Assembly (NCBI RefSeq): GCF_000375545.1
Contig: NZ_AQXF01000001.1
Coordinates: forward strand, 989,241 to 1,053,240
Reading direction: 5' to 3'
Length of the DNA stretch: 64,000 bases
From: Kordiimonas gwangyangensis DSM 19435 = JCM 12864
Lineage (GTDB): Bacteria; Pseudomonadota; Alphaproteobacteria; Sphingomonadales; Kordiimonadaceae
Part shown: positions 11,301 to 64,000 of the stretch, in pieces
How positions within the stretch are numbered: position 1 is the first letter of the stretch
How the letters are laid out: every line of letters begins with the position of its first letter
Translations under genes and position numbers: made by a program
Notes under the pieces: generated by a model
The model's database searches: none
What the model was told of the DNA's origin: nothing
The model's input: only the letters and a program-made list of their open reading frames with translations

Positions 11301-14300
11301 ACGGCACTTGGTTTTTTGGCGCGGCACGACGGCAAATCAAGCGGCCTTACGTCGCGCCGCAGGTGCTGTGTCCAGAAGGCGTGATCTCTATCTGCAGTAC
11401 CACTTTGTCGGTAGTTCTCTTCGTCTGTAACAAACTCGCTATAGCTTGCGTCAAGCGGCGCCAGTGAGCGCCCGCCCAGCAGCTGCTCCAGTTCGGTCAT
11501 CAGGATACGCAGGCTGATACCGTCCATGGCAATGTGATGGAAAACACACAAGAGGTGCGGCTGCCCATTCCAATCCGGGATATAGTCGAACCGGCAGGGG
11601 GCCTCGGCACGCAGGTCAAAGGGCGCACGCACCCGTTCCCGTAGCGCGTCGAGGGTGTCTTCTTGCGCTCGACTGGCGGGCAGCGGCAGAGTTCTCAGCG
11701 CGGGGCGAGCAGCGACAGAACGCCTGATTACATTGCCTTGCGCATCCTCGTCAAAGCAGTGGTGCAAGCTTTCATGGCGGGCAACCAGTGCATCTATTGC
11801 GGCCTCCAGCTGCGCTATATCTACCTTGGTGCCAAACCGAATGAAAACGGGCATATTGTATGCGAACGACGACGGCGCCAGGCGGTAATGCCGCCAGATT
11901 GGGAGCTGTTGTCGCGAGGCGAGAAGTGGACCATCTGTGCGCGCGGGTTCCGGCGCATCTTCTGGTTTGGGGGCCGGGCGGCTAGCGAACAGGCCGTCGA
12001 TAAGCGTCCGCAGTTGGCCGACGGTCTTACATTCGACAAGGCGTGCCGTGGTGACTTCCGTACCTGTGCGTTCGGTGACCAACTGGGAAAGGCGCGCCGC
12101 AGTCAAGGAATTGAAGCCAATTTCGTCCAGCGTATCTACGTCATCCGGATGTGAATCGCCTTCCAGCGCTTCAAGGAGAAGGTCTGCAGCGGTGGTGCCC
12201 TCGGCCCGGTTCGCACTGGCTAATACATGAGGCGTTTCGGTCAGTTGATGAAGGAGCGGTGCATCCGCTGGGCCGTAGGCCACGCCAACAATAGCTTCAC
12301 CGGAGGCGAGAATACGGTCAAAAGCTTCAAACCCGATAGCCTCAGGAAGTGCCTTGAGGCCTGTTTTTCGAGCCAGGCGGCCAAGCTCACCCGCAGGCGG
12401 TGCCATGCCAATGCCGTCCCACAGGGGCCACGCGACCGATTTCCAGTTCTCTTCCTCAAAGGCGACAGCATCCTCAAAGGCATTTGCGGCGGCATAGGTC
12501 GCCTGACCCGGATTGCCCATCCAGGCCGCGAGGGATGAGAAGGTCACAACCAGTGGGCGGCGTTCAAGGCTCTTGATGGCGGTGCGCAAGGCTGCAACAC
12601 CACCAACTTTGGCATCAAGCACGCGCTCAATCGCGAGCCTGTCAGCAGACGATAAAAGCTGGTCATCCTGTATGCCTGCACAGTGTGCTATCAGGTCGAT
12701 CCTGCCGCTGTGCCCCTCAATATCCTGCAGCAGGGCAGTCATGCCCTGTGGATCGGCGATATTCTGCGAACGGTAGGTGACTTTTGCGCCGAGTGCTCGA
12801 ACTGCGTTAAGAGCGTCCCGTAGTGTCTCGTCTTCCTGACGACGGCCTACCAGGGTCAGCGCCACCTCGCCTTTGCGCGCTAAATGTTTTGCGAGCGCGA
12901 GACCAAGTCCACCTGCTCCGCCCAGTATCACCGCCTGTTGGTAGGCTTTTACTTTGCCTGAAAGCAGGTCCGTCGCCTCAAGGCCGAGAACCTCGAAACC
13001 CGTTGCTTGTTTGCGCAGTACAGACCCTGGCTTGACGGTCGGTATGTGCACTTCTGAGATGGTGCTTTCGTCAACAAGGACACTGCCGCAGTCACGGGCG
13101 AATTCAGTGGCCGCAGTACGCAAAAGTGCTGCGACTGCCATGCCTGTGGCCAGGTCCGCAGTTCGGTATAGCCGCGCTTCACCAGCACAGGCCAACCGGG
13201 CGACTTCTTCCAGAAGCACACCGAGGGACTTTTGGGTTGCAAGGTCTGTGGGCGATTGGGGTGTAGCTGTCGCGCCAGCCAGGGCATGCCAGCTTGGTCG
13301 CAGGTAGGTTTGCCTGTCAGGTGACGGGGCTACTTGCGCGCCAGCATCATGGCGGTGGTCGACCCAGTACCGTGCGCCGGTGAAAGTGTAGGCGGGGAGT
13401 TCAATTTTCTGAGGGCGATGCTTGTCAGCCCAAAGGGCTTGCCACGGAATGTCGACGCCGTCCTGCCAGATGGCAGCAAGAGACCCGAGGTCACCATCCG
13501 CGAGCATGGAACGTATCAAACCCGGTCCACTGGTTCCGCTTAGCAAGCGGCGAACGGAAGCAGGTATGTTGGAAGACTTGCCAGACTGTTCGGCCTTACC
13601 GCCAAGGAAGGCAGCAAGCGCTGATTTCAGTTCCTGAAGCGAACTGCAGACAAAAGCATGGCGACATGCCATGGCGTCCCGCCCGGTCTGAAGCGTGTAA
13701 GCAATCGCTGCCAAACTGACAGCGGGTCTGTGGTCCGCCACTGCGTGCAGGGGTTTGTGCATGCTCGCGAGTGCTGCGGCGACATCACGTACGGTATTTT
13801 CCACCGTTACTTGGTCGCGCGACAGGGCGCCCGGGTAGGTCTGTGACAGCTTCTGCACCAGCTGACGCATTTCAAGGAAATCGAGGCCGAGTTCGGCGAA
13901 GGCCTCGTCGGGGTCTATTGCATTCTCAGGGATATGCAGCATGTCAGAGAGATGTGATGTGATGTGCGCGATCACTTCGGCATGGTCAACCGCTGGCGGG
14001 TGCATAGCCTGCGGCGTGTCGGCTGCATGTATCTCAAGCCATGTGTGCATATCCTGAGCGCGCCGCCGCAGGTCGTCATTCGACCGCGCGGACAAGGGGA
14101 TCAGATAGGCACTTGTGTCGGCCGTATTATCGGTCGCGCGTGGCGCAGGTTCACCCGCGATCACAACGTGCGCGTTGGTACCGCCGAACCCGAAGGAGCT
14201 GACTCCAGCTATCAGTTTTTCGCCCCGTAGTGTTTTCCGGCTTGACGCGAGCTCAAGCGGCGTACCAGCTGTTTCGATATCCGGGTTGAGGGCACCGAGG

Positions 14301-50461: not shown

Positions 50462-52126
50462 ATGAAAACAATGTCTCCAGCAAACACGCCAGCCACCCCT
50501 ACCACCAGCTTTATAACGCTGCTGTTGGGTCGGCATAACCGCAACAGAGTTTATCTGCTCGCGTGGCTTTTAGCGGCTGCGCTTTCAAGTGTCGCGACCA
50601 TTGCGCTCGTCACATCCACCGTCGCGGGTGGCACCGAAAATGGTGTCGATTTCCAGTCGCTCGGCATGTTCCTGATCATTGCGGCCGTGTTGATCTACAG
50701 TCAATTCAATGTCACCGGTCTGACGGTTGACACTTGCGAAACCGCCGTCGAAATCCAGCGGCGCGAATTTGCGCTTGCGATCCGCTACGCAGATCTGAAG
50801 ACGGTCGAGGCTCTCAGCACCACCAAGCTCTATGGGCTGTTGAACCGCACTACGGCAATCCTGACCGAAGCCGGACCCCCTGTCATATTTGCGCTGATCA
50901 CCGGCGGAGTGACCACCTGCATTGGCCTCTACACGCTTTACCTGTCGCCGCTGACCTTCATTGTGATCATTGTCACGGTCGCCGCGACCGCCTTCGTCGC
51001 GCGCTACTACATCGAGAGTGCAGCGCCTGACGTCTACAAGGCGCAGGTCACCGAACGTACCTACATGAACCTCTTCATCCAGCTTCTGGATGGGTTGAAG
51101 GAAGTGAAGCTCAACGGTCGGGCGGGGGATGATCTGCAGACCAATTATATCTCGGCAGCCGCTGCAAAAACCCATGCGGAGAAAGACAGCGCCTCCCGTA
51201 CCTCAAGCAAAGCCTATATGACGATCTATGTCGGCTTTTATGTTCTTGTTTCCGCCATCGTCTTCGCGGTGCCTCAATATATCGATAGCGCGGAAACGGT
51301 CAGCAAAATCACCTACATCGCCATTTTCCAGATCGCGACGCTGAACATTGTGCTGCGTGCGATTCCCATGCTCTCGCGCGCCAATCAGGCGTTGGCGGAG
51401 CTTGAACAGGTGAAAGCAACCCTGCGCGATGCCCGTCAAGGTGATGGGGCGGATGTTGCGGCGCTGGCGAGCTTCAAATCCATTGCGCTGGAAGACTGTA
51501 CGGTATCCTTTGATCCGCGCGGGGGAGTACCTGGGTTTGGCCCCGTGTCCGTTAAATTTGAGCCGGGCCAGATCATCGCGGTCAATGGTCCAAACGGATC
51601 CGGTAAAACCACCCTGTTGCGTTTGATTTGCGGGCTTGTTCATCCCGGCAGTGGCCGTCTGCTTGTGGATGGTGAAGAGTTGCATGAGAACCAAGGAAGC
51701 GCCTACCGCAGCCTGTTTGCCGCTGTTTTTCTCGATAGCCACCTTTTCGACCGGTTTTACGGGGTGAGCGAAGAGGAAAAGCAAGCTTTCTACGAGACAG
51801 TGGTTGAGCTTGGTATTGATGAAGGCTTGGTGGCCACGGCCGCGGATCTCAAGCGTCACTTCTCACCGGCTCAAAAGCGCCGGCTTATGCTGGCGTTCGC
51901 CCTGGTTCAAAAACGGCCCGTGCTTATTCTTGACGATATTGAAGCCGGGCAGGATGAGTGGTTCACAAACAAGCTGCATAACGACATACTGCCACGCCTC
52001 AAGCAGGCAGGAACAACCGTTGTGCTGGCGGTTCACCGTGAAGGTGCCCTGACAGAAATGGCTGACCAGATTATCAACCTCCGCCCGCAACCGGCGGGGC
52101 CAACACAGACCGAGAATTCTCTATGA
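50462..52126 (+). CDS. ABC transporter of the cyclic-peptide-exporter (SyrD-like) family, permease-ATPase fusion with degenerate signature motif
   Basis: TM domain then GPNGSGKTT, SPAQKRRLMLAFAL (in place of LSGGQ), LILDDIEAGQDE. Confidence 0.8.
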   Translation: MKTMSPANTPATPTTSFITLLLGRHNRNRVYLLAWLLAAALSSVATIALVTSTVAGGTENGVDFQSLGMFLIIAAVLIYSQFNVTGLTVDTCETAVEIQRREFALAIRYADLKTVEALSTTKLYGLLNRTTAILTEAGPPVIFALITGGVTTCIGLYTLYLSPLTFIVIIVTVAATAFVARYYIESAAPDVYKAQVTERTYMNLFIQLLDGLKEVKLNGRAGDDLQTNYISAAAAKTHAEKDSASRTSSKAYMTIYVGFYVLVSAIVFAVPQYIDSAETVSKITYIAIFQIATLNIVLRAIPMLSRANQALAELEQVKATLRDARQGDGADVAALASFKSIALEDCTVSFDPRGGVPGFGPVSVKFEPGQIIAVNGPNGSGKTTLLRLICGLVHPGSGRLLVDGEELHENQGSAYRSLFAAVFLDSHLFDRFYGVSEEEKQAFYETVVELGIDEGLVATAADLKRHFSPAQKRRLMLAFALVQKRPVLILDDIEAGQDEWFTNKLHNDILPRLKQAGTTVVLAVHREGALTEMADQIINLRPQPAGPTQTENSL

Positions 52127-53634
52127 CTGCCGAAGCGACAAGCACACCGACACCGCCAGCCAAGAAAGCTCGCAGGAAATCACCGCCGAAACATATGGTG
52201 CATGTCATTGGCACCATTCTGGCGATCGGGTTTCTCCTGCTGGTGTTCTGGCGCTATATATTTGTGACCATTCTGCCCGGTAACGTGGGCGTTCTCTACA
52301 GCTGGCTTTTTGGCGGTACCCAAGTCTATTCGGAACTGGGTGAAGGCTTCCACATGAAGCTGCCGTGGAACAGGATCTATGTTTTCGAGACCCGGGTACA
52401 GGCGGCAAATGAAGAAGTTCTCGCGCTCAGTGCCGAAGGTATGGAAGTCCGTGTGAAACTGTCAGTGCTTTTCCGGGTGAAAAGCGACCAAGCTGGTGAG
52501 TTGTTGCAGGGTATCGGACCAGAGTACCGCGAACGTGTTGTCATTCCGCTGACAACAGGTGCGGTGCGGGAAGTACTGTCGCGCTACAATTCAGTTGAGC
52601 TCTATACCAGCAACTACAAACAGCTGGAAAATGACCTCTACCAGATTGTGAAACTGTCTGAATATTCCCAGTATTTTGAATTTACAGACCTCATCATCCG
52701 CGAAATTATCATTCCGCCAGCTATCGCGAACTCTATCGAGGAAAAACTGGTGCAGGAACAAGTTGCTGCGTCCTTCACCTTCCGCCTCGAAGCTGAGCGG
52801 CAGGAGGCGGAGCGGCTTCGGATCAAGGCGCTTGGGGTACAAAACTTCTATTCGATTGTCTCCGGCGCGCTTAACAAAAACCTGCTGACATGGCGCGGCA
52901 TTGAAGCAACTGTGGAACTGGCGAAATCGCCAAACTCCAAAGTCGTAATTGTCGGCTCAGGTGAAAAGCAGTTGCCGCTGATCCTCGGCAGCGACATCCA
53001 TAACCTGCAGCAGGCACCACCAATCAAATCAATGTCTGAGTCAGACGCACCGGCGCTCGATTTTGAGAATCTGCCGCAACTTTTCCCGGAAGATGAGAGT
53101 TCAACAACCGGCGTACAAAAGCCAGCGACTGGCGTTGAAGGCGACGGATCGAAAAAAACAAAGCCGGCAGGAACTCAGCCCGAGGGGGCAGGCCATACAA
53201 AGGCGCAGAAGGTTGACGCCACGAGTGCTGAGGCCGATGGCCTCATTGCGCCAAATGAGGTCGCTGACGGGTTGACCGACACAACAAATACGGACGGCAT
53301 GTTGGCGGAGAAGAATCAGAACGATGGCCTGACCAGCCCAACAGACATCAACGAGGGCACACGGTCGCAGCCAGCTGCGCTGGTTAATCGGCAAATTTCA
53401 GAATCAAACCCCTATTCAGCAGGGCTCACATCCAACAGTCTAGGAGCGAATATCATGCTTCCCTTCCTTCTCGTTATCTATCTGTTCCTGTGTATCGTTG
53501 TTGCCTATTACGGCCGTCACCGCCGCTTCGGATTCGCAGGGGTGTTTGCCATCAGCATTTTGCTGACTCCCTTCCTCGTATTCCTGCTGTCGATCGCGCT
53601 GGATGATGATCACCGGGTGAAGAACAAGCGCTGA
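52123..53634 (+). CDS. SPFH/band-7 (prohibitin/stomatin-like) membrane protein with N-terminal TM, SPFH domain, ~150-aa low-complexity region with xDGLxxxxxx repeats and two C-terminal TM helices
   Basis: ATGA start overlap with the ABC gene; SPFH pattern GNVGVLYSWLFGG...MEVRVKLSVLFRV...coiled-coil; C-terminal LPFLLVIYLFLCIVVAYY and FAGVFAISILLTPFLVFLL. Confidence 0.8.
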   Translation: MTAEATSTPTPPAKKARRKSPPKHMVHVIGTILAIGFLLLVFWRYIFVTILPGNVGVLYSWLFGGTQVYSELGEGFHMKLPWNRIYVFETRVQAANEEVLALSAEGMEVRVKLSVLFRVKSDQAGELLQGIGPEYRERVVIPLTTGAVREVLSRYNSVELYTSNYKQLENDLYQIVKLSEYSQYFEFTDLIIREIIIPPAIANSIEEKLVQEQVAASFTFRLEAERQEAERLRIKALGVQNFYSIVSGALNKNLLTWRGIEATVELAKSPNSKVVIVGSGEKQLPLILGSDIHNLQQAPPIKSMSESDAPALDFENLPQLFPEDESSTTGVQKPATGVEGDGSKKTKPAGTQPEGAGHTKAQKVDATSAEADGLIAPNEVADGLTDTTNTDGMLAEKNQNDGLTSPTDINEGTRSQPAALVNRQISESNPYSAGLTSNSLGANIMLPFLLVIYLFLCIVVAYYGRHRRFGFAGVFAISILLTPFLVFLLSIALDDDHRVKNKR

Positions 53635-53787: not shown

Positions 53788-53836
53788 TGGTGGAGCCGAT
53801 CGGGATCGAACCGACGACCTCTACACTGCCAGTGTA
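53788..53836 (-). tRNA. tRNA 3-prime-end fragment only (T-arm, acceptor 3-prime strand, CCA); no matching 5-prime half, so not a functional gene - looks like an att-site remnant
   Basis: Reverse complement reads ...GTCGGTTCGATCCCGATCGGCTCCACCA (T-stem GTCGG/CCGAT, T-loop TTCGATC, acceptor CGGCTCC, discriminator A, CCA); complementary GGAGCCG not found upstream. Confidence 0.5.
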
Positions 53837-54165: not shown

Positions 54166-55482
54166 TCATAGTTCCTGTATTGGTCTGCGGAGCCGCATTT
54201 GAACAGCCTCCGAGATTCTTACCACCACTTCTTCAGGCAGGTCCTGTAGCATTTTTGTCCTGGCGCGCTCGGCCGCGCCATCGGCGGCCTCCTGTATCGA
54301 TGCGTAGATTTCCTCGATCTCGCCGGGGTCCATCGCGGCTGCCTTGCCACTTTGCAGAAAGTGCCGAGGATAGATGGTGTCGATAGGATAATGCCGTCTG
54401 TCGCCAACCGCCATAGCCAGCTTCATCTCCTGCCGGCGCAGTTCATGCCGTGCCAGATTGGGCTCGGCCGACATGATGTCGTAAAAAGGAGTCATCCGGT
54501 ATCCGCCGCCCGGCGCCAGATACAGGCTGAAATTCTTGGCATGCCCGTCAGTTGCCCCCAGGAGCCAAAAAAGCATCTGGGCTTTGAGGAAATGCCGGCG
54601 ATCCTCATCGGCATAGTCGCTGCCGCCCAATAGATGCAGGCATTCGCCGATACCGGGTCCGCCTTCATTATTGTATTTTCGGGTCGCCGGCACGCCAAGA
54701 GCCTGGCAGAAGTCTTCCTGCGGCAAGCGCAGCAACCGGCCATCTTTTGTGTGGCGCCGGTCAAACCTCTCCACGACCAGAACGCGCTTGTCCTCGAAAT
54801 CGATTATCTGGCTACCTGCCACATCGAGGCCAAACTCGGCGCACAGTGTGAGGCAAAAATGCTCATTCTCAACGCTGTCCGACATATCAAGGCCGTTCGG
54901 CAGCTTACCGAGTTGGGGTTTGAGAATGTGGGTGGTCGGTGTGCCCCCTTTCGGTATTTGCCATCCGTTCGTCCATAGAAGAGCCGTCTTCTCCTGAACC
55001 CCTGCAAGCGAGATTCGGAAGTCGCGGTCTTTGTCTGTGCGGATGCCAAGCGGCGCCGTTGCCAGATTGCGGATGATGCCGGCGACTGCTGCGTCATCCA
55101 CCGGTTCCCCTTCGGGGGGACCCGGCGGTGCAATATCGTCTCCGTCCGGTACGAACTGCAGGGCTCCCACACAATCCCGGCCGATTTTATCAAGCATGCT
55201 GAAAGCGTCCGTGCCCTCAGCCCCGACCCTTTCGGCAACTTTGCGTCTGATGGGATCGTTCTCGGGCAGCAGATTGTCAAAATAAGCCAAGACGGGCGCG
55301 CCGACATAGCGCTCTTCGCGAAGAGGCAAGGACAGGGAAACCGGGATAGCCCGCCGCATATCCGCAAGCCAATCGGCTGCATAGGTGAAGCTGACGGCAC
55401 CGTTGTTCGAGCGGTCAAGATTGCCCATATGTCGGCCATTGAGGGCGACCAGGAGGCGGGACGTCCTTTTTTGCCGCGCCAT
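54166..55482 (-). CDS. hipA: HipA-family Ser/Thr kinase toxin (type II toxin-antitoxin)
   Basis: 438 aa; N-terminal HipA-coupling region, catalytic DGHAKNFS motif, overall collinear with E. coli HipA length. Confidence 0.85.
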   Translation of the reverse strand: MARQKRTSRLLVALNGRHMGNLDRSNNGAVSFTYAADWLADMRRAIPVSLSLPLREERYVGAPVLAYFDNLLPENDPIRRKVAERVGAEGTDAFSMLDKIGRDCVGALQFVPDGDDIAPPGPPEGEPVDDAAVAGIIRNLATAPLGIRTDKDRDFRISLAGVQEKTALLWTNGWQIPKGGTPTTHILKPQLGKLPNGLDMSDSVENEHFCLTLCAEFGLDVAGSQIIDFEDKRVLVVERFDRRHTKDGRLLRLPQEDFCQALGVPATRKYNNEGGPGIGECLHLLGGSDYADEDRRHFLKAQMLFWLLGATDGHAKNFSLYLAPGGGYRMTPFYDIMSAEPNLARHELRRQEMKLAMAVGDRRHYPIDTIYPRHFLQSGKAAAMDPGEIEEIYASIQEAADGAAERARTKMLQDLPEEVVVRISEAVQMRLRRPIQEL

Positions 55483-55736
55483 CAGAACAGGTCCTCAATA
55501 TCCTGGGGGGTGCTTTTGCTGCGCGGCTGCAATTGGATTTCAAGATCAAGCACGCGCATAAGCTCAATGATGGTACTGAGCTTTACCGTCTCGAGGCCGT
55601 TCTCGACCTGAGAGACCGTGCTCTGCCTGAGACCAGCACGCTGCGCGAGCGCTGCTTGTGTGAGATTGTGCTTACGACGCCGACGCCGGAGCGCGATCCC
55701 GATATCCTTGGCCGACCTGACAAGCTGATGATCCAT
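55482..55736 (-). CDS. hipB: HipB-like XRE-family HTH antitoxin/repressor
   Basis: 84 aa, HTH LTQAALAQRAGLRQSTVSQVENG; 1-nt overlap with hipA. Confidence 0.75.
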   Translation of the reverse strand: MDHQLVRSAKDIGIALRRRRRKHNLTQAALAQRAGLRQSTVSQVENGLETVKLSTIIELMRVLDLEIQLQPRSKSTPQDIEDLF

Positions 55737-55849: not shown

Positions 55850-56315
55850 TGACACCGACTTTGATGGCTGATGTTCTGGTGATGATCCGCGTTCTGGGCC
55901 GAGTTGCCCGCCGAGGATAGGCACTGCAACTGAGGAAATTATCGCCAATCAGTGGCAGGGCCCGAGGAGGCAATTGATTGCAAATATTTGCGAATAGTAT
56001 TGCGAGGCAGTCCTGCCTGCCGTGCAATCTCCCAGATCGATGGAGCTAAGCCCAATCGCTTCTAACGAAGTATAACCAAGTATATCGCAAGCGGACTATA
56101 CATAGTTATACTTGTGTATATTCATGTGCAAGGTTACTCAAAATTGGATGCACACTGGCACGGTAGGCATGGCGGTCCACCTTACGGGGCAGCGAGCAGC
56201 AAATTTCAGGTGTGTGGGCATCATATATGAATGCGGCGCCACCTTCGGGAACTTCCTCAAGATGTCCAACTTTATGCCACATGAGGGTTACGATGCCTTG
56301 TCTGAGAGCTTCCTT

Positions 56316-56408
56316 GGTACCGATTTCCATACCTTGAATGTGTTATGGTATTGGTATGGTATCCTTTTCGGTACCCTTCAACAAAAAGGTATCGATTTCG
56401 ATACCTTG
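56316..56408. repeat. Cluster of GGTAYC/GRTACC palindromic motifs, including two 21-bp direct repeats GGTA(C/T)CGATTTC(C/G)ATACCTTG
   Basis: 56316-56336 and 56388-56408 differ at 2 positions; second copy GGTATCGA-TT-TCGATACC is a perfect 8-bp inverted repeat; GGTATTGGTATGGTATCC in between. Confidence 0.4.
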
Positions 56409-56789: not shown

Positions 56790-57578
56790 ATGCCGAAGCT
56801 ACCGAACAAAATTCACCCCAACCACCGGGTAGTATCTGTAGCTGGGGATGGACGAACGTTTGTCTGTGGCGATCTTCATGGATGCTACGATGAGCTCCTG
56901 CAGGAAATGCATTATGCTGGCTTCGATAGAGCCCGGGATCACCTTATCGTTCTTGGCGATTTGACGGACCGGGGCATCAAGAATTATGAATGCGTCAAAT
57001 TGCTTGCCGAGCCCTGGTTTCATAGCGTGCTCGGCAATCATGATGAAATGATGCTCAATGCCGTCAATCCTCGCTCCGATAAACATTTCTGGCGCGTCAA
57101 CGGGGGCGGTTGGTTCGATCTGTTGAATGAAGAGCAGCAGGAAGAAGTGCAACATCTCTGTGACCACTATGTCGAGCGCTTACCGCTCAGCATGACCTTG
57201 ATACTGCCTGACGGTTCCCAGATTGGCCTCATGCATGCCGATGCCCCAACTGATTGGTACGCCGCGGCAGAGGGGCGCCAACCACGCATGGAAACCCTAT
57301 GGGGCAGAAGGCGCATTAAGGACAAGGATCAGACTTCAGTTGCCAACGTGGATCTCGTACTGGTCGGCCATACGTCCAATAACGCCATTTTGCGCTTGGG
57401 GAACGTAATCTACCTGGATACAGGCGCGGGCTTCAGAAATGGACGGCTCACCATGGTTGAGATTGGCCAGTCCCTCGAAGAGTTTGAGGCGAACCTTCAG
57501 CAGCGGATCGAGTTGGACCGAAACCGCAACTTTCTGCCCTTCACTTATGAGCCAATTGGCGACTATGAAACAGGATAG
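56790..57578 (+). CDS. PPP-family Ser/Thr protein phosphatase (PrpA/PrpB / lambda-phosphatase-like metallophosphoesterase); ORF is open from TTG 56778, ATG 56790 preferred
   Basis: GDLHG, GDLTDRG, GNHD, VNGGGWF, GHT, LDTGAGF - the PPP signature set; GAGG Shine-Dalgarno 6 nt before ATG 56790. Confidence 0.8.
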   Translation: MPKLPNKIHPNHRVVSVAGDGRTFVCGDLHGCYDELLQEMHYAGFDRARDHLIVLGDLTDRGIKNYECVKLLAEPWFHSVLGNHDEMMLNAVNPRSDKHFWRVNGGGWFDLLNEEQQEEVQHLCDHYVERLPLSMTLILPDGSQIGLMHADAPTDWYAAAEGRQPRMETLWGRRRIKDKDQTSVANVDLVLVGHTSNNAILRLGNVIYLDTGAGFRNGRLTMVEIGQSLEEFEANLQQRIELDRNRNFLPFTYEPIGDYETG

Positions 57579-57582
57579 CCAG

Positions 57583-58170
57583 ATGAAAACATTTCTCTGC
57601 ATTGATTTGGAAGCTACCTGCTTTGATAGGGAGACCCTTGGTCGTGATCTTACGGTCGAAGATATGGAAACGATCGAAATCGGCGTGATTGCCCTTGATG
57701 AGGCCGGGGAAGGTGTTGGTGAGTTTCATTCATATGTCAAACCGGCATATACCGAGGTTTCTCCTTACTGCACGGACGTAACCGGCATCACGGCGCATAC
57801 GCTGGCTGACGCACCGGGTTTTGCCGACATGATGGAAGCACTGCGACGGTGGTTGTCCGGTTTACCGGCGTCGCCAGATTGCTGGTATTCCTGGGGCAAC
57901 TATGACCTGAAGCAGCTCGAACTGGACGCGAGTATCAAAAGATCCAACCTTGTTCTTCCTCTGCCGCCACACCGGAATGCCAAGAAGCTGTTCCAGAAAC
58001 AGCATATCCGCAAAGGCAGGCAGGTCGGGCTTTTGAAGGCCTTGGAGCTGGTCAACCTGACCTTCGAGGGCCGACATCATTCGGCCCTTGATGACGCACG
58101 CAATGTCGCGAGGTTATTTGAATATTTTCACAATCCTGAAAAGCGTATTAGGTCTGTTACGTGCAGATAA
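57583..58170 (+). CDS. DEDDh 3-5 exonuclease (DnaQ/ERI-1/KapD-like), translationally coupled to the phosphatase
   Basis: Exo I FLCIDLEAT, Exo III HSALDDARNVARL; AGGA 8 nt before ATG 57583, 4 nt after the phosphatase stop. Confidence 0.75.
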   Translation: MKTFLCIDLEATCFDRETLGRDLTVEDMETIEIGVIALDEAGEGVGEFHSYVKPAYTEVSPYCTDVTGITAHTLADAPGFADMMEALRRWLSGLPASPDCWYSWGNYDLKQLELDASIKRSNLVLPLPPHRNAKKLFQKQHIRKGRQVGLLKALELVNLTFEGRHHSALDDARNVARLFEYFHNPEKRIRSVTCR

Positions 58171-60897: not shown

Positions 60898-61374
60898 TAA
60901 ATCAATTGCTGCCTGAATGAACGCACTTTTTCCGTTTATGATACATTAATTGCTCCTTGCAATAATCCTATTATGTCAGGTGGATCAGCAAGTTGCTGAC
61001 CAGCAGTACGTTTCGTGAGGTACGCGGAGGTCTTTCTCGAGGATTGTTTTTGGCTTTTTGGGCTTTGTCCGCCATTATATGGTAGCTCTCGGTCATGCCC
61101 GTGAGCTTCTGCCGGTTCTTCGCTCCAGCTCGCAATCGGACATATTTCACTATGAAGCGATTTGCTACTTATCTCTAGTCAAGTGGCTTCCTTAATCGCC
61201 AAGGAACAACTTGCAACACCATGTCATGTTGGAATTATTTTTTATGGCGAACACCTGATGATATGCTTGGATACTGTGAGCCATCTTTGCGGAGCATGAT
61301 GACTAGACACCTAAGGGCTGTTCAGTTGGTGACTGGGCGGCAACTCACAAAGCACTCGGCTAACGGATAGACAA

Positions 61375-62730: not shown

Positions 62731-62804
62731 ATAGCCCTAGTCTCTGAATAGCCCCTAGATTTCTAGACACCTTGCTTGGTAAAAATGAAGCAAGGAGTTG
62801 ATGT

Positions 62805-63086
62805 ATGTCGTCAGGTATTCGTTATACGGAAGAGTTCAAGCGAGATGCGGTCGCACAGGTGGTTGATCGGGGCTATTCGGTTCTGGAAGTTGCGACGGGG
62901 CTGGGGATTAGCACCAAGTCGCTCTATGACTGGAAGAAGTGCTATCACAAGCCAGAGCGACAGATCCGGCAGGAAGCTGCGGAGGCCGCCGAAATACGCC
63001 GACTGAAGGCGGAACTGGCCCGGGTTACCGAGGAACGGGACATCCTAAAAAAGGCCACGGCGTACTTCGCAAGAGAAGCCAAGTAA
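62805..63086 (+). CDS. IS3-family transposase OrfA (HTH)
   Basis: MSSGIRYTEEFKRDAVAQV...LGISTKSLYDWKK...leucine-zipper tail; typical IS3 OrfA. Confidence 0.8.
   Translation: MSSGIRYTEEFKRDAVAQVVDRGYSVLEVATGLGISTKSLYDWKKCYHKPERQIRQEAAEAAEIRRLKAELARVTEERDILKKATAYFAREAK
63047..63053 (+). promoter_or_regulatory. Programmed -1 ribosomal frameshift heptamer A AAA AAG linking orfA to orfB
   Basis: In orfA frame the codons are CTA AAA AAG; -1 frame continues as KKGHGVLRKRSQVKYAFIKAH, the conserved OrfB N-terminus. Confidence 0.6.
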
Positions 63087-63981
63087 AGTACGCCTTCATC
63101 AAAGCGCACCGGGGCCTTTTCCGGGTGCGCGTGATGTGCCGCGTGCTGCTGGTGCAGCATAGTGGCTTCTATGCCTGGCTGCGCTCGCCGATGAGCAACC
63201 GGGCCAAGGATGACAGACGTCTTACCGGCCTGATCAAGCAGGTATGGCTTGAGAGCGGCTGTGTCTATGGCTACCGCAACATCCATGATGATCTGCGGTC
63301 CATCGGCGAGACCTGCTGTCCGAAGCGGGTATGGCGATTGACCCAGCTGGCAGGCATCAAGGCACAGGTCGGTTACCGTCGTCGGCCCGGCAGCTATGGC
63401 GGATCGCCAGCAATCGTGGCCCCCAACCATTTGTAGCAACAGTTTGATGCAGCGCGGCCTGATCAGACCTGGGTGACGGCTTGCGAAGCAGACGTTTACG
63501 TCACATCACCTATATCAAGACCCATGAAGGCTTCCTGTATCTGGCTGTCGTGATTGATCTCTATTCTCGCCGCCTAGTCGGCTGGTCGATGCAGTCCCGC
63601 ATGCATATGGATCTGGTTCTGAGTGCACTTCTAATGGCCGTTTGGCGGCGTAAACCAAGATCGAAGGTGATCATCCATTCAGACCAGGGAAGCCAGTTTA
63701 CCAGTCATGAGTGGCAGAAGTTCCTGCAGACCCACAATCTGGAAGCCAGCATGAGCAGACGGGGGAGCTGTCACGATAATGCTGTCGCGGAAAGCTTTTT
63801 CCAGCTCCTCAAGCGGGAACGGATCAGGCGACGGACGTATCGGGACCGCACAGAAGCTCGGCAGGACGTCTTTGATTACATCGAGTTTTTCTATAACCCA
63901 AAACGCAAGCATGGTAACAACGGTCTGCTGTCGCCCGTCGAGTTCGAACGGCAGCAAAATTGGAAAGCCCAAGGTGTCTAA
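63047..63981 (+). pseudogene. IS3 transposase OrfB (DDE integrase core) disrupted by an in-frame TAG (63434-63436) and a ~23-nt insertion causing a second frameshift around 63445-63480
   Basis: Frame -1 segment ends ...AIVAPNHL*; conserved QQFDAARPDQTWVT continues, then GCTTGCGAAGCAGACGTTTACGTCAC interrupts the expected WVTD-ITYI junction; DDE core ITYIKTHEGFLYLAVVIDLYSRR... resumes in another frame. Confidence 0.55.
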
Positions 63982-64000
63982 GAAACTAGGGGCTATTCAG

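Follow-up and report, generated by a model that had tools for sequence, protein, structure and literature searches.

What do a lambda-type phosphatase and a 3'-5' exonuclease do together when mobile DNA carries them as one unit? The question is raised by two adjacent genes in a 64,000-nucleotide stretch of the genome of Kordiimonas gwangyangensis DSM 19435 = JCM 12864 (contig NZ_AQXF01000001.1, forward-strand positions 989,241 to 1,053,240), which we call the window. Lambda phosphatase is a standard laboratory reagent, and about 3% of sequenced phages encode a NinI-like phosphatase. To our knowledge, the question of what lambda-type phosphatases act on in nature has been open since 1989, and we know of no role assigned to bacterial exonucleases of the ERI1/KapD type outside Bacillus. 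An earlier interpretation, made from the nucleotide letters alone (the sequence-only reading), described the genes as encoding a phosphatase resembling PrpA and lambda phosphatase and a DnaQ-like exonuclease, located on an integrative island beside a HipA kinase. It proposed a prophage remnant or a module for phage defence or for the modulation of toxin-antitoxin systems. Here, we find that the two genes are cargo of mobile elements in Kordiimonas-like alphaproteobacteria, as a single cassette that is transcribed together and coupled in translation. We consider it plausible, if short of probable, that the two proteins act together on the 3' ends of RNA or DNA.

A lambda-type phosphatase and an ERI1/KapD-clade exonuclease are encoded by coupled genes

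The phosphatase carries the complete set of PPP-family motifs: GDLHG (residues 27–31), GDLTDRG (56–62), GNHD (82–85), H149, and GH (193–194). The motifs are kept in an alignment of 25 relatives, which places the protein in the PPP family. It contains a Metallophos domain (5.6e-15, Pfam), and its best family match is phrog_246, annotated as 'NinI-like serine-threonine phosphatase' (2.4e-68). Residues 23–225 match the structure of lambda phosphatase (1g5b, E=2.3e-42), which establishes similarity to lambda phosphatase/NinI at an identity of only about 40%. The phosphatase domain of Pnkp (4j6o) also ranks among the top solved relatives. The scores against the NCBIfam equivalog models of Escherichia coli PrpA and PrpB are 138.8 and 115.5 bits, below the respective cut-offs of 326 and 332, and the protein is therefore not an orthologue of either. 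It ends in an acidic extension of ~37 residues that lambda phosphatase lacks. Judged by motifs and matches, the protein is of the lambda-phosphatase type, as the sequence-only reading had it, and its enzymatic activity is predicted.

The exonuclease consists of an RNase_T domain spanning residues 6–179 (9.2e-19, Pfam). Its DEDDh residues D8, E10, D108, H166, and D171 are invariant in 20 exonuclease sequences. The nearest solved relatives by sequence are ERI3 (2.9e-10) and ERI1 (2.1e-9), and a fold search with an AlphaFold model (pLDDT 92) placed ERI3, 3'hExo, and ERI2 on top, with TM values of 0.74–0.77. The identity to the solved structures is about 26%, and the closest of them are of the ERI type rather than DnaQ, RNase T, or TREX. 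The scores against the models of DnaQ and the DNA polymerase III epsilon subunit are 33.4 bits for a cut-off of 71.5 (TIGR00573) and 26.9 for 222.7 (TIGR01406). On sequence and modelled fold, the exonuclease belongs to the ERI1/KapD clade and not to DnaQ. The earlier label 'DnaQ-like' is right at the level of the superfamily only, because the nearest relatives are ERI3, 3'hExo, and ERI2. The protein is not a KapD orthologue (58.3 bits against the NF005838 equivalog cut-off of 169, NCBIfam), and its 195 residues contain no SAP domain of the kind located at the N-terminus of eukaryotic ERI1. The clade also includes a bacterial protein, KapD of Bacillus subtilis, which has been proven to be a 3' exoribonuclease and whose homologues in Proteobacteria are horizontally scattered (PMC11736430).

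Four nucleotides (CCAG) separate the two genes, and the ribosome-binding site of the exonuclease lies within its upstream neighbor (Table 1). Both open reading frames (ORFs), the spacing, and the AGGA motif were seen directly where the sequence-only reading had placed them. In loci L005/L015, L014, and L298, the gap is replaced by a four-nucleotide overlap of the genes. A scan for promoters and terminators around the operon gave results at or below shuffle expectation, and Pfam assignments revealed no fusion of the two domains among detectable relatives. In comparison with the orthologues from K. lipolytica, the phosphatase has a ratio of non-synonymous to synonymous substitution rates (dN/dS) of 0.21, the exonuclease has one of 0.08, and flanking genes range from 0.02 to 0.15 (hipB 0.11, hipA 0.14, integrase ORF 0.15, epimerase 0.02). 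Both members of the pair are therefore under purifying selection and represent functional genes. They diverge in step: the phosphatase and exonuclease identities to the window are 64.5% and 65% in L005, ~68% and 66% in L014, and 50% and 50% in L298. The genes are thus intact, coupled, and inherited together.

The pair is cargo of mobile elements in Kordiimonas

A search of species-representative genomes with the exonuclease yielded at least 568 matching stretches, of which the best 80 loci were examined together with 41 viral contigs. Among these, a lambda-type phosphatase adjoins the exonuclease in three Kordiimonas species only, which answers the co-occurrence check that the sequence-only reading had suggested. 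The pair-bearing loci (3 of the 80) are always located on a mobile element, at differing chromosomal sites. A sample of 160 metagenome and viral loci with lambda-type phosphatases of 30–45% identity, mostly from lambdoid prophages, contained no exonuclease beside the phosphatase (0/160), and a general association of lambda-type phosphatases with the exonuclease was rejected. It follows from the two distributions that the pair is not a housekeeping unit and not a feature of phages in general. Either protein has few close relatives, and all the named ones belong to Kordiimonadaceae (Kordiimonas, Gimibacter). A search of plasmids yielded no near-identical DNA.

The distribution already contradicts the idea that the pair serves the host as a conserved housekeeping unit for RNA processing, which we consider extremely improbable. 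Single ERI1/KapD-like exonucleases are indeed widespread, as the number of matching stretches shows. The pair, however, is rare among the best-matching loci and never found off a mobile element there, and the phosphatase of L014 is internally deleted. A housekeeping unit common to many genomes is what the sequence-only reading had named as its refutation, and the pair is instead confined to Kordiimonas-like genomes.

The pair is usually the final cargo of an element of 4–5 kb (L005/L015, L014, L298/299). The element is composed of a repressor-like helix-turn-helix (HTH) gene on the opposite strand, an ORF of 71–100 codons, a tyrosine integrase with an Arm-DNA-binding domain, two to three small ORFs, and then the cargo. 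A tRNA-Ala or tRNA-Leu gene adjoins the element in three loci, and no convincing direct repeats were found as att sites of these small integrase elements. The earlier idea of mobile-element cargo, possibly derived from a phage, is supported.

Members of this element family in Kordiimonadaceae are L005 (3767–7629), L006 (7153–11334), L007, L014, L298 (185–4895), and L302. The tRNA genes adjoin the elements in L005, L006, and L014. One of the small ORFs has a weak match to the antitoxin domain Xre_MbcA_ParS_C. The phosphatase of L014 (9396–10004), a metagenome-assembled Kordiimonas genome, is shortened to 202 residues by the loss of approximately residues 160–225, and the overlapping exonuclease gene is intact. 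After the exonuclease gene comes an IS3-family element, a relative of which occupies positions 62745–63999 of the window.

In L006 (9615–9989), L134 (9508–9840), and L298 (2724–3077), the gene directly before that of the phosphatase or exonuclease encodes a protein of 110–124 residues. This protein is also fused to the C-terminus of the exonuclease in protein P0008 (L298 4011–4895), with 40% identity over 107 residues. The fusion hints at a possible third partner, for which the window has no gene.

The phosphatase is located near Tn7-like transposons in L134 and L303. In L300 (7198–13662), an HTH gene on the minus strand, an 85-codon ORF, and a phosphatase homologue with 58% identity precede a Hachiman-like gene pair by 295 nucleotides. 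HamA of this pair is weakly matched (6e-5) and HamB strongly (1e-49). The trio of HTH gene, 85-codon ORF, and phosphatase recurs in L303, where it abuts the Tn7-like transposon.

Distant exonuclease relatives adjoin phosphatases of unrelated families

Relatives of the exonuclease with 35–40% identity are coupled to phosphatases of unrelated families on other mobile DNA. In Marinobacter, an MPP-type Metallophos gene follows the exonuclease gene in three chromosomes and in plasmid p36788, where the two overlap by four nucleotides. Plasmid p36788 additionally encodes, 1.3 kb away, a lambda-type phosphatase with 30% identity to that of the window (E=1e-29). An internally deleted remnant of a lambda-type phosphatase gene lies directly upstream of the exonuclease gene in Marinobacter SS5-14b (L052).

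In all three rep_cluster_429 plasmids (from Chitinibacter, Acidovorax, and Comamonas), the exonuclease gene is preceded by a gene for a HAD-IA hydrolase and followed by the RNase toxin pair RelB-YafQ. The Chitinibacter plasmid carries a further HAD gene, assigned to PF18143, 'HAD domain in Swiss Army Knife RNA repair proteins' (8e-31), which has a four-nucleotide overlap with the exonuclease. A second HAD-domain gene occupies the same position in the Comamonas plasmid and is a candidate member of that family only. The rep_cluster_429 block (L304 1945–3919, L306, L307) adjoins partition genes on small betaproteobacterial plasmids. The PF18143 (HAD_SAK_2) gene is present in L304 and absent in L306.

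RNA-repair genes also occur in the vicinity of distant exonuclease relatives. Viral contig L132 contains genes for the RNA 2'-phosphotransferase Tpt1, the exonuclease, a 114-residue protein, and a Pnkp-like fusion of a P-loop kinase with a lambda-type phosphoesterase. The cluster (9399–12300 of IMGVR_UViG_3300033066_002300) starts with Tpt1/KptA, and the kinase-phosphoesterase has 467 residues. By its gene content, the cluster looks like an RNA end-healing set, with no obvious ligase nearby. Tpt1 is encoded within 2 kb of the exonuclease in L059 and L123 as well. Among 270 neighbor ORFs, RlaP was found seven times and the T4-type combination AAA_33+PNK3P twice.

Joint processing of nucleic-acid 3' ends

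We hypothesize that the phosphoesterase and the 3' exonuclease form a mobile cargo cassette acting on RNA or DNA 3' ends, an explanation that we hold tentatively. Taken together with the literature on the two folds and on KapD, the coupling of exonuclease relatives to unrelated phosphatases makes a shared 3'-end action the most economical reading, and from it we infer which substrates the pair has, in which order the enzymes act, and what their biological role is. Both enzymes would share nucleic-acid substrates, at 3' ends and probably of RNA. In this scheme, the 2',3'-cyclic phosphates or 3'-phosphates left by metal-independent RNases, which stop 3' exonucleases, would be opened or removed by the Mn-dependent phosphoesterase of the lambda type. 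Once the 3'-OH is free, the ERI1/KapD-type exonuclease would trim or degrade the molecule from there. The order may also be the reverse, with the phosphoesterase acting on products of the exonuclease. The probable setting would be the clean-up or repair of damaged RNA in conflicts among host, mobile elements, and phages. Pnkp-Hen1, a system of RNA repair, includes a 2',3'-phosphatase with the lambda phosphatase fold (PMC3675462).

Several observations weigh against this explanation. Lambda phosphatase frees no phosphate from 2'-, 3'-, or 5'-AMP (PMC2190708), so a lambda-like enzyme alone may leave a monophosphate end and no 3'-OH. The natural substrate of lambda phosphatase was judged by the authors of another study to be probably not RNA (PMC3675462). 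The window phosphatase is acidic (isoelectric point 5.3, net charge about -12), and the family alignment revealed no obvious large insertion in it. A phosphatase neighbor was found at only about 5 of 118 distant exonuclease loci, in raw counts, and on four of eight sampled plasmids, three of which are related. Furthermore, the exonuclease stands alone in sister elements L006, L007-9, and L010-12, and the phosphatase in L135, L300/L303, L302, and L134, so the coupling is not obligatory. The nucleases encoded beside the phosphatase in L134 (Gimibacter, Endonuclease_NS) and L302 (SNase) carry signal or anchor sequences and thus lend no support to a cytoplasmic partnership. For the same reason, we rejected the idea of a phosphatase with an interchangeable nuclease.

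Alternatively, the two could be unrelated accessory genes left by the early region of a temperate phage. Their co-transcription would then reflect only the compact operons of phages and mobile elements, and a protein phosphatase of the NinI type would stand beside an independent exonuclease with no common substrate. The solitary genes of the sister elements speak for this view. NinI-like phosphatases are present in 1434 of 50,697 phage records, a phage family is the best match of the window phosphatase (phrog_246), and phage members of the exonuclease family sit in nucleotide-metabolism regions. This alternative is nevertheless somewhat unlikely. The exonuclease is absent from all 160 lambda-type phosphatase loci of phages and metagenomes, the flanks of the pair are free of structural and replication genes of phages at every locus, the linkage with matched divergence holds down to 50% identity, and non-homologous phosphatases recur beside the exonuclease family.

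Joint 3'-end processing by the Kordiimonas pair could be one instance of a wider pattern. We speculate, and regard it as unlikely on present evidence, that mobile elements repeatedly build a ligase-free 'heal-and-trim' cassette for RNA 3' ends from an ERI1/KapD-like exonuclease and a phosphatase of the lambda, MPP, or HAD_SAK_2 type. Such a cassette would undo or clear the damage caused by toxins that act as RNases or nucleotidyl-transferases; the 3' ends of tRNAs, for example, would be restored for the re-addition of CCA. The Kordiimonas pair would be its lambda-phosphatase version. If this were true, lambda-type phosphatases would have a natural role in nucleic-acid metabolism. More generally, the conserved coupled pairing is a testable hint that some lambda-type phosphatases act on nucleic-acid ends.

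The pair resides on an island bounded by a tRNA remnant

The window region of 53.8–60.9 kb has 93–95% nucleotide identity to contig NZ_JBHSCR010000015 of K. lipolytica. The tRNA-Ala fragment at its left edge (Table 1) is followed by a terminator hairpin (to about 53745), and the same hairpin follows the intact tRNA-Ala gene in two other Kordiimonadaceae genomes. The fragment lacks the 5' half of the gene, and ARAGORN found no tRNA anywhere in the window. The fragment is a classic remnant at the end of a tRNA-integrated island. From there the island extends rightward past the end of the window, so that its other end lies outside. Besides the phosphatase-exonuclease pair, it carries hipBA, an epimerase gene, a truncated ORF with an integrase domain, a gene of the Wzy type, and an IS3-like ORF pair. 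The integrative island described by the sequence-only reading was thus recovered, with the tRNA-Ala fragment as a tRNA-derived att remnant and the Phage_integrase-domain ORF as a recombinase, together with the IS3-like ORF pair recognized by reading.

Table 1. Features of the operon and the surrounding island, in window coordinates
Feature	Position	Strand	Description
tRNA-Ala(GGC), 3' fragment of 48 nucleotides	53788–53835	-	att-type remnant; left edge of the island
hipB-hipA toxin-antitoxin pair	54166–55736	-	HTH 55482–55736, HipA 54166–55482; Pfam; dN/dS 0.11–0.14
Second hipA-like gene, N-terminal remnant	56106–56330	-	intact in K. lipolytica (450 residues)
Phosphatase	56790–57578	+	lambda-type (PPP/NinI-like) binuclear metallophosphoesterase, 262 residues; ATG 56790, TAG 57578; GAGG 5 nucleotides before start
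AGGA ribosome-binding site of the exonuclease	57572–57575	+	within the 3' end of the phosphatase gene; 7 nucleotides before the second ATG
Exonuclease	57583–58170	+	ERI1/KapD-clade DEDDh 3'-5' exonuclease, 195 residues, nuclease domain only; ATG 57583, TAA 58170
Integrase-domain ORF, 501 residues	59392–60897	-	C-terminal part of a 1775-residue ORF in L001 (4216–9543); Phage_integrase domain
ORF pair resembling an IS3-family transposase	62805–63981		assigned by reading the sequence

The 1775-residue ORF of close relatives is unusually large for a protein with a Phage_integrase domain. Homology to the relatives ends abruptly at position 60917, where Wzy-type and IS3-like sequence begins, and this sudden end suggests a rearrangement. 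No remnants of the genes of the small elements (HTH, integrase, small ORFs D, E, F, and I) were found in the window. The cassette of the window therefore stands without the usual integrase element, within the larger island bounded by the tRNA-Ala fragment.

The second hipA of K. lipolytica (450 residues, HipA_C 5e-36) is divergent from the phosphatase gene, with an intergenic region of 316 nucleotides, and an IS3-type element is inserted nearby. Its overlapping 114-residue HTH gene comes after and not before it (L013 7259–8891), which inverts the usual hipB-hipA order. This hipA is reduced to an N-terminal stub in the window, as it is in four metagenome contigs of 97% identity (L001-4).

Left of the island, the tRNA-Ala remnant separates the hipBA region from a Band_7 gene (52123–53634), the last of a series of ORFs downstream of giant ORFs. 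Two giant ORFs of 5729 and 6342 residues occupy most of the window (2396–38606, minus strand) and are followed by transporter-like ORFs. Together they are probably a large biosynthetic cluster.

HipA and defence genes are not conserved neighbors of the pair

The HipA kinase proposed as a neighbor by the sequence-only reading is present, with its HTH partner, 1 kb from the pair. A link of the pair to HipA or to defence was not supported. In a phmmer search of all ORFs of 295 loci with the window HipA, a HipA near the pair was found only in the K. lipolytica lineage (window, L001, and L013). None was found within 6–10 kb at the other pair-bearing loci (L005/L015, L014), at 118 further exonuclease loci, or at 160 further phosphatase loci, and no HipA-like protein is encoded among selected neighbor ORFs of L134, L135, L298, L300, and L302. 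HipA linkage as a conserved feature was rejected on the grounds that only L001 and L013 were matched.

The phosphatase could nevertheless be a protein Ser/Thr phosphatase that reverses phosphorylation by HipA, a type VII-like antitoxin or modulator akin to the KKP system, with the exonuclease as an accessory. Besides the nearby hipBA and the second, divergently oriented hipA that is intact in K. lipolytica, this view could draw on the dephosphorylation of phosphoproteins by lambda phosphatase (PMC3675462) and on KKP as a precedent for a phosphatase serving as antitoxin to kinases (PMC11341870). However, HipA is missing near the pair outside one lineage among the loci searched, the second hipA is a remnant in the window and L001-4 where the pair is still intact under purifying selection, and each of the two hipA genes has an HTH partner of its own. 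The families also differ from the Hanks kinases and PP2C phosphatase of KKP. We therefore consider a role against HipA improbable.

An equally improbable proposal is an anti-phage defence or anti-defence module, in which the phosphatase would control an exonuclease effector, or the enzymes would degrade second messengers with cyclic-phosphate ends. Calcineurin-type phosphodiesterases have been proposed as counter-signal enzymes in jumbo phages (PMC7824862), the pair lies on mobile elements among toxin-antitoxin genes, and the phosphatase homologue of L300 is directly upstream of the Hachiman-like hamA/hamB. A PADLOC 2.0 analysis that covered hipBA and the integrase ORF besides the pair found no match at the level of a system, and none of any kind for the phosphatase; membership in a defence system was rejected on this basis. 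The exonuclease matched a generic DEDDh model and positions 5–171 of the 411-position candidate PDC-S48, its N-terminal domain, at the domain level only. Nothing was found by PADLOC in the small ORFs of the sister elements. Elsewhere, the pair or its homologues are flanked by tRNA genes, polysaccharide clusters, type II secretion genes, and Tn7-like transposons, and these contexts are not defence islands, L300 being the one exception. A paper on aRES and a phage phosphatase was set aside as not relevant, since the phosphatase there is a Macro-domain enzyme.

The data presented here do not point to a role in defence or in the modulation of toxin-antitoxin systems, both of which the sequence-only reading had raised. 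Even if the hint of an action on nucleic-acid ends is wrong, the reading as a kinase, phosphatase, and nuclease defence set is removed, as it rests on a lineage-specific neighbor.

Comparison with known systems

Each of the two proteins is a new member of a well-known family. As far as we have checked, the coupled pair on small integrative elements corresponds to no described system, in a literature check that did not extend to one RNA-repair survey.

The window phosphatase shares its fold and all catalytic motifs with lambda NinI and E. coli PrpA and PrpB, and NinI is likewise carried by mobile DNA. The window protein differs from these in its acidic tail, its position outside a nin-type phage region, and its coupling to an exonuclease. 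No phage replication, nin, Q, or structural genes flank the pair as they would in the nin region of a lambdoid prophage; its neighbors are hipBA, the epimerase gene, the integrase-domain ORF, Wzy, and the putative insertion sequence. In the sister elements, the neighbors are an HTH gene, an integrase, and small ORFs only.

The exonuclease shares the DEDDh residues with KapD and with ERI1/3'hExo, ERI2, and ERI3, which include its top sequence and fold matches. Similar to KapD and ERI3, it is formed by the nuclease domain only. It differs from KapD and the ERI proteins in that it lacks the SAP domain and a link to sporulation, is mobile, and has a phosphatase partner.

RNA end-healing systems (Pnkp-Hen1, T4 Pnkp/Rnl, 'Swiss Army Knife' HAD) include a lambda-fold 2',3'-phosphoesterase module, and relatives of the exonuclease adjoin the end-healing genes Pnkp-like, Tpt1, RlaP, and HAD_SAK_2. 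The window phosphatase scores 27.8 bits against 750 for Pnkp-Hen1 (TIGR04075), and Pfam scans of the named island ORFs detected no kinase, ligase, or methyltransferase of such a system. In comparison with end-healing, an exonuclease here takes the place of the sealing step, and the outcome would be trimming or degradation and not ligation.

The KKP system resembles the window in combining kinase toxins with a phosphatase on mobile DNA, and K. lipolytica has two HipA-type kinases. By definition, a single KKP operon encodes a PP2C phosphatase (PF13672) together with two kinases of the Hanks family (PF00069) (PMC11341870). Here, in contrast, the kinases are of the HipA_C family and have their own antitoxins, the phosphatase is a PPP-type Metallophos protein, and the co-occurrence is not conserved, so the locus is not a KKP system.

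The pairs of Marinobacter and of the rep_cluster_429 plasmids share with the Kordiimonas pair an exonuclease of 36–39% identity, a four-nucleotide overlap with the phosphatase gene, residence on mobile DNA, and adjoining toxin-antitoxin genes. They differ in that the partner is an MPP-type Metallophos or a HAD phosphatase, and in Marinobacter also in gene order. Since unrelated phosphatases have come to stand beside the same exonuclease family, these pairs strengthen the hint that the Kordiimonas pair acts on nucleic-acid ends.

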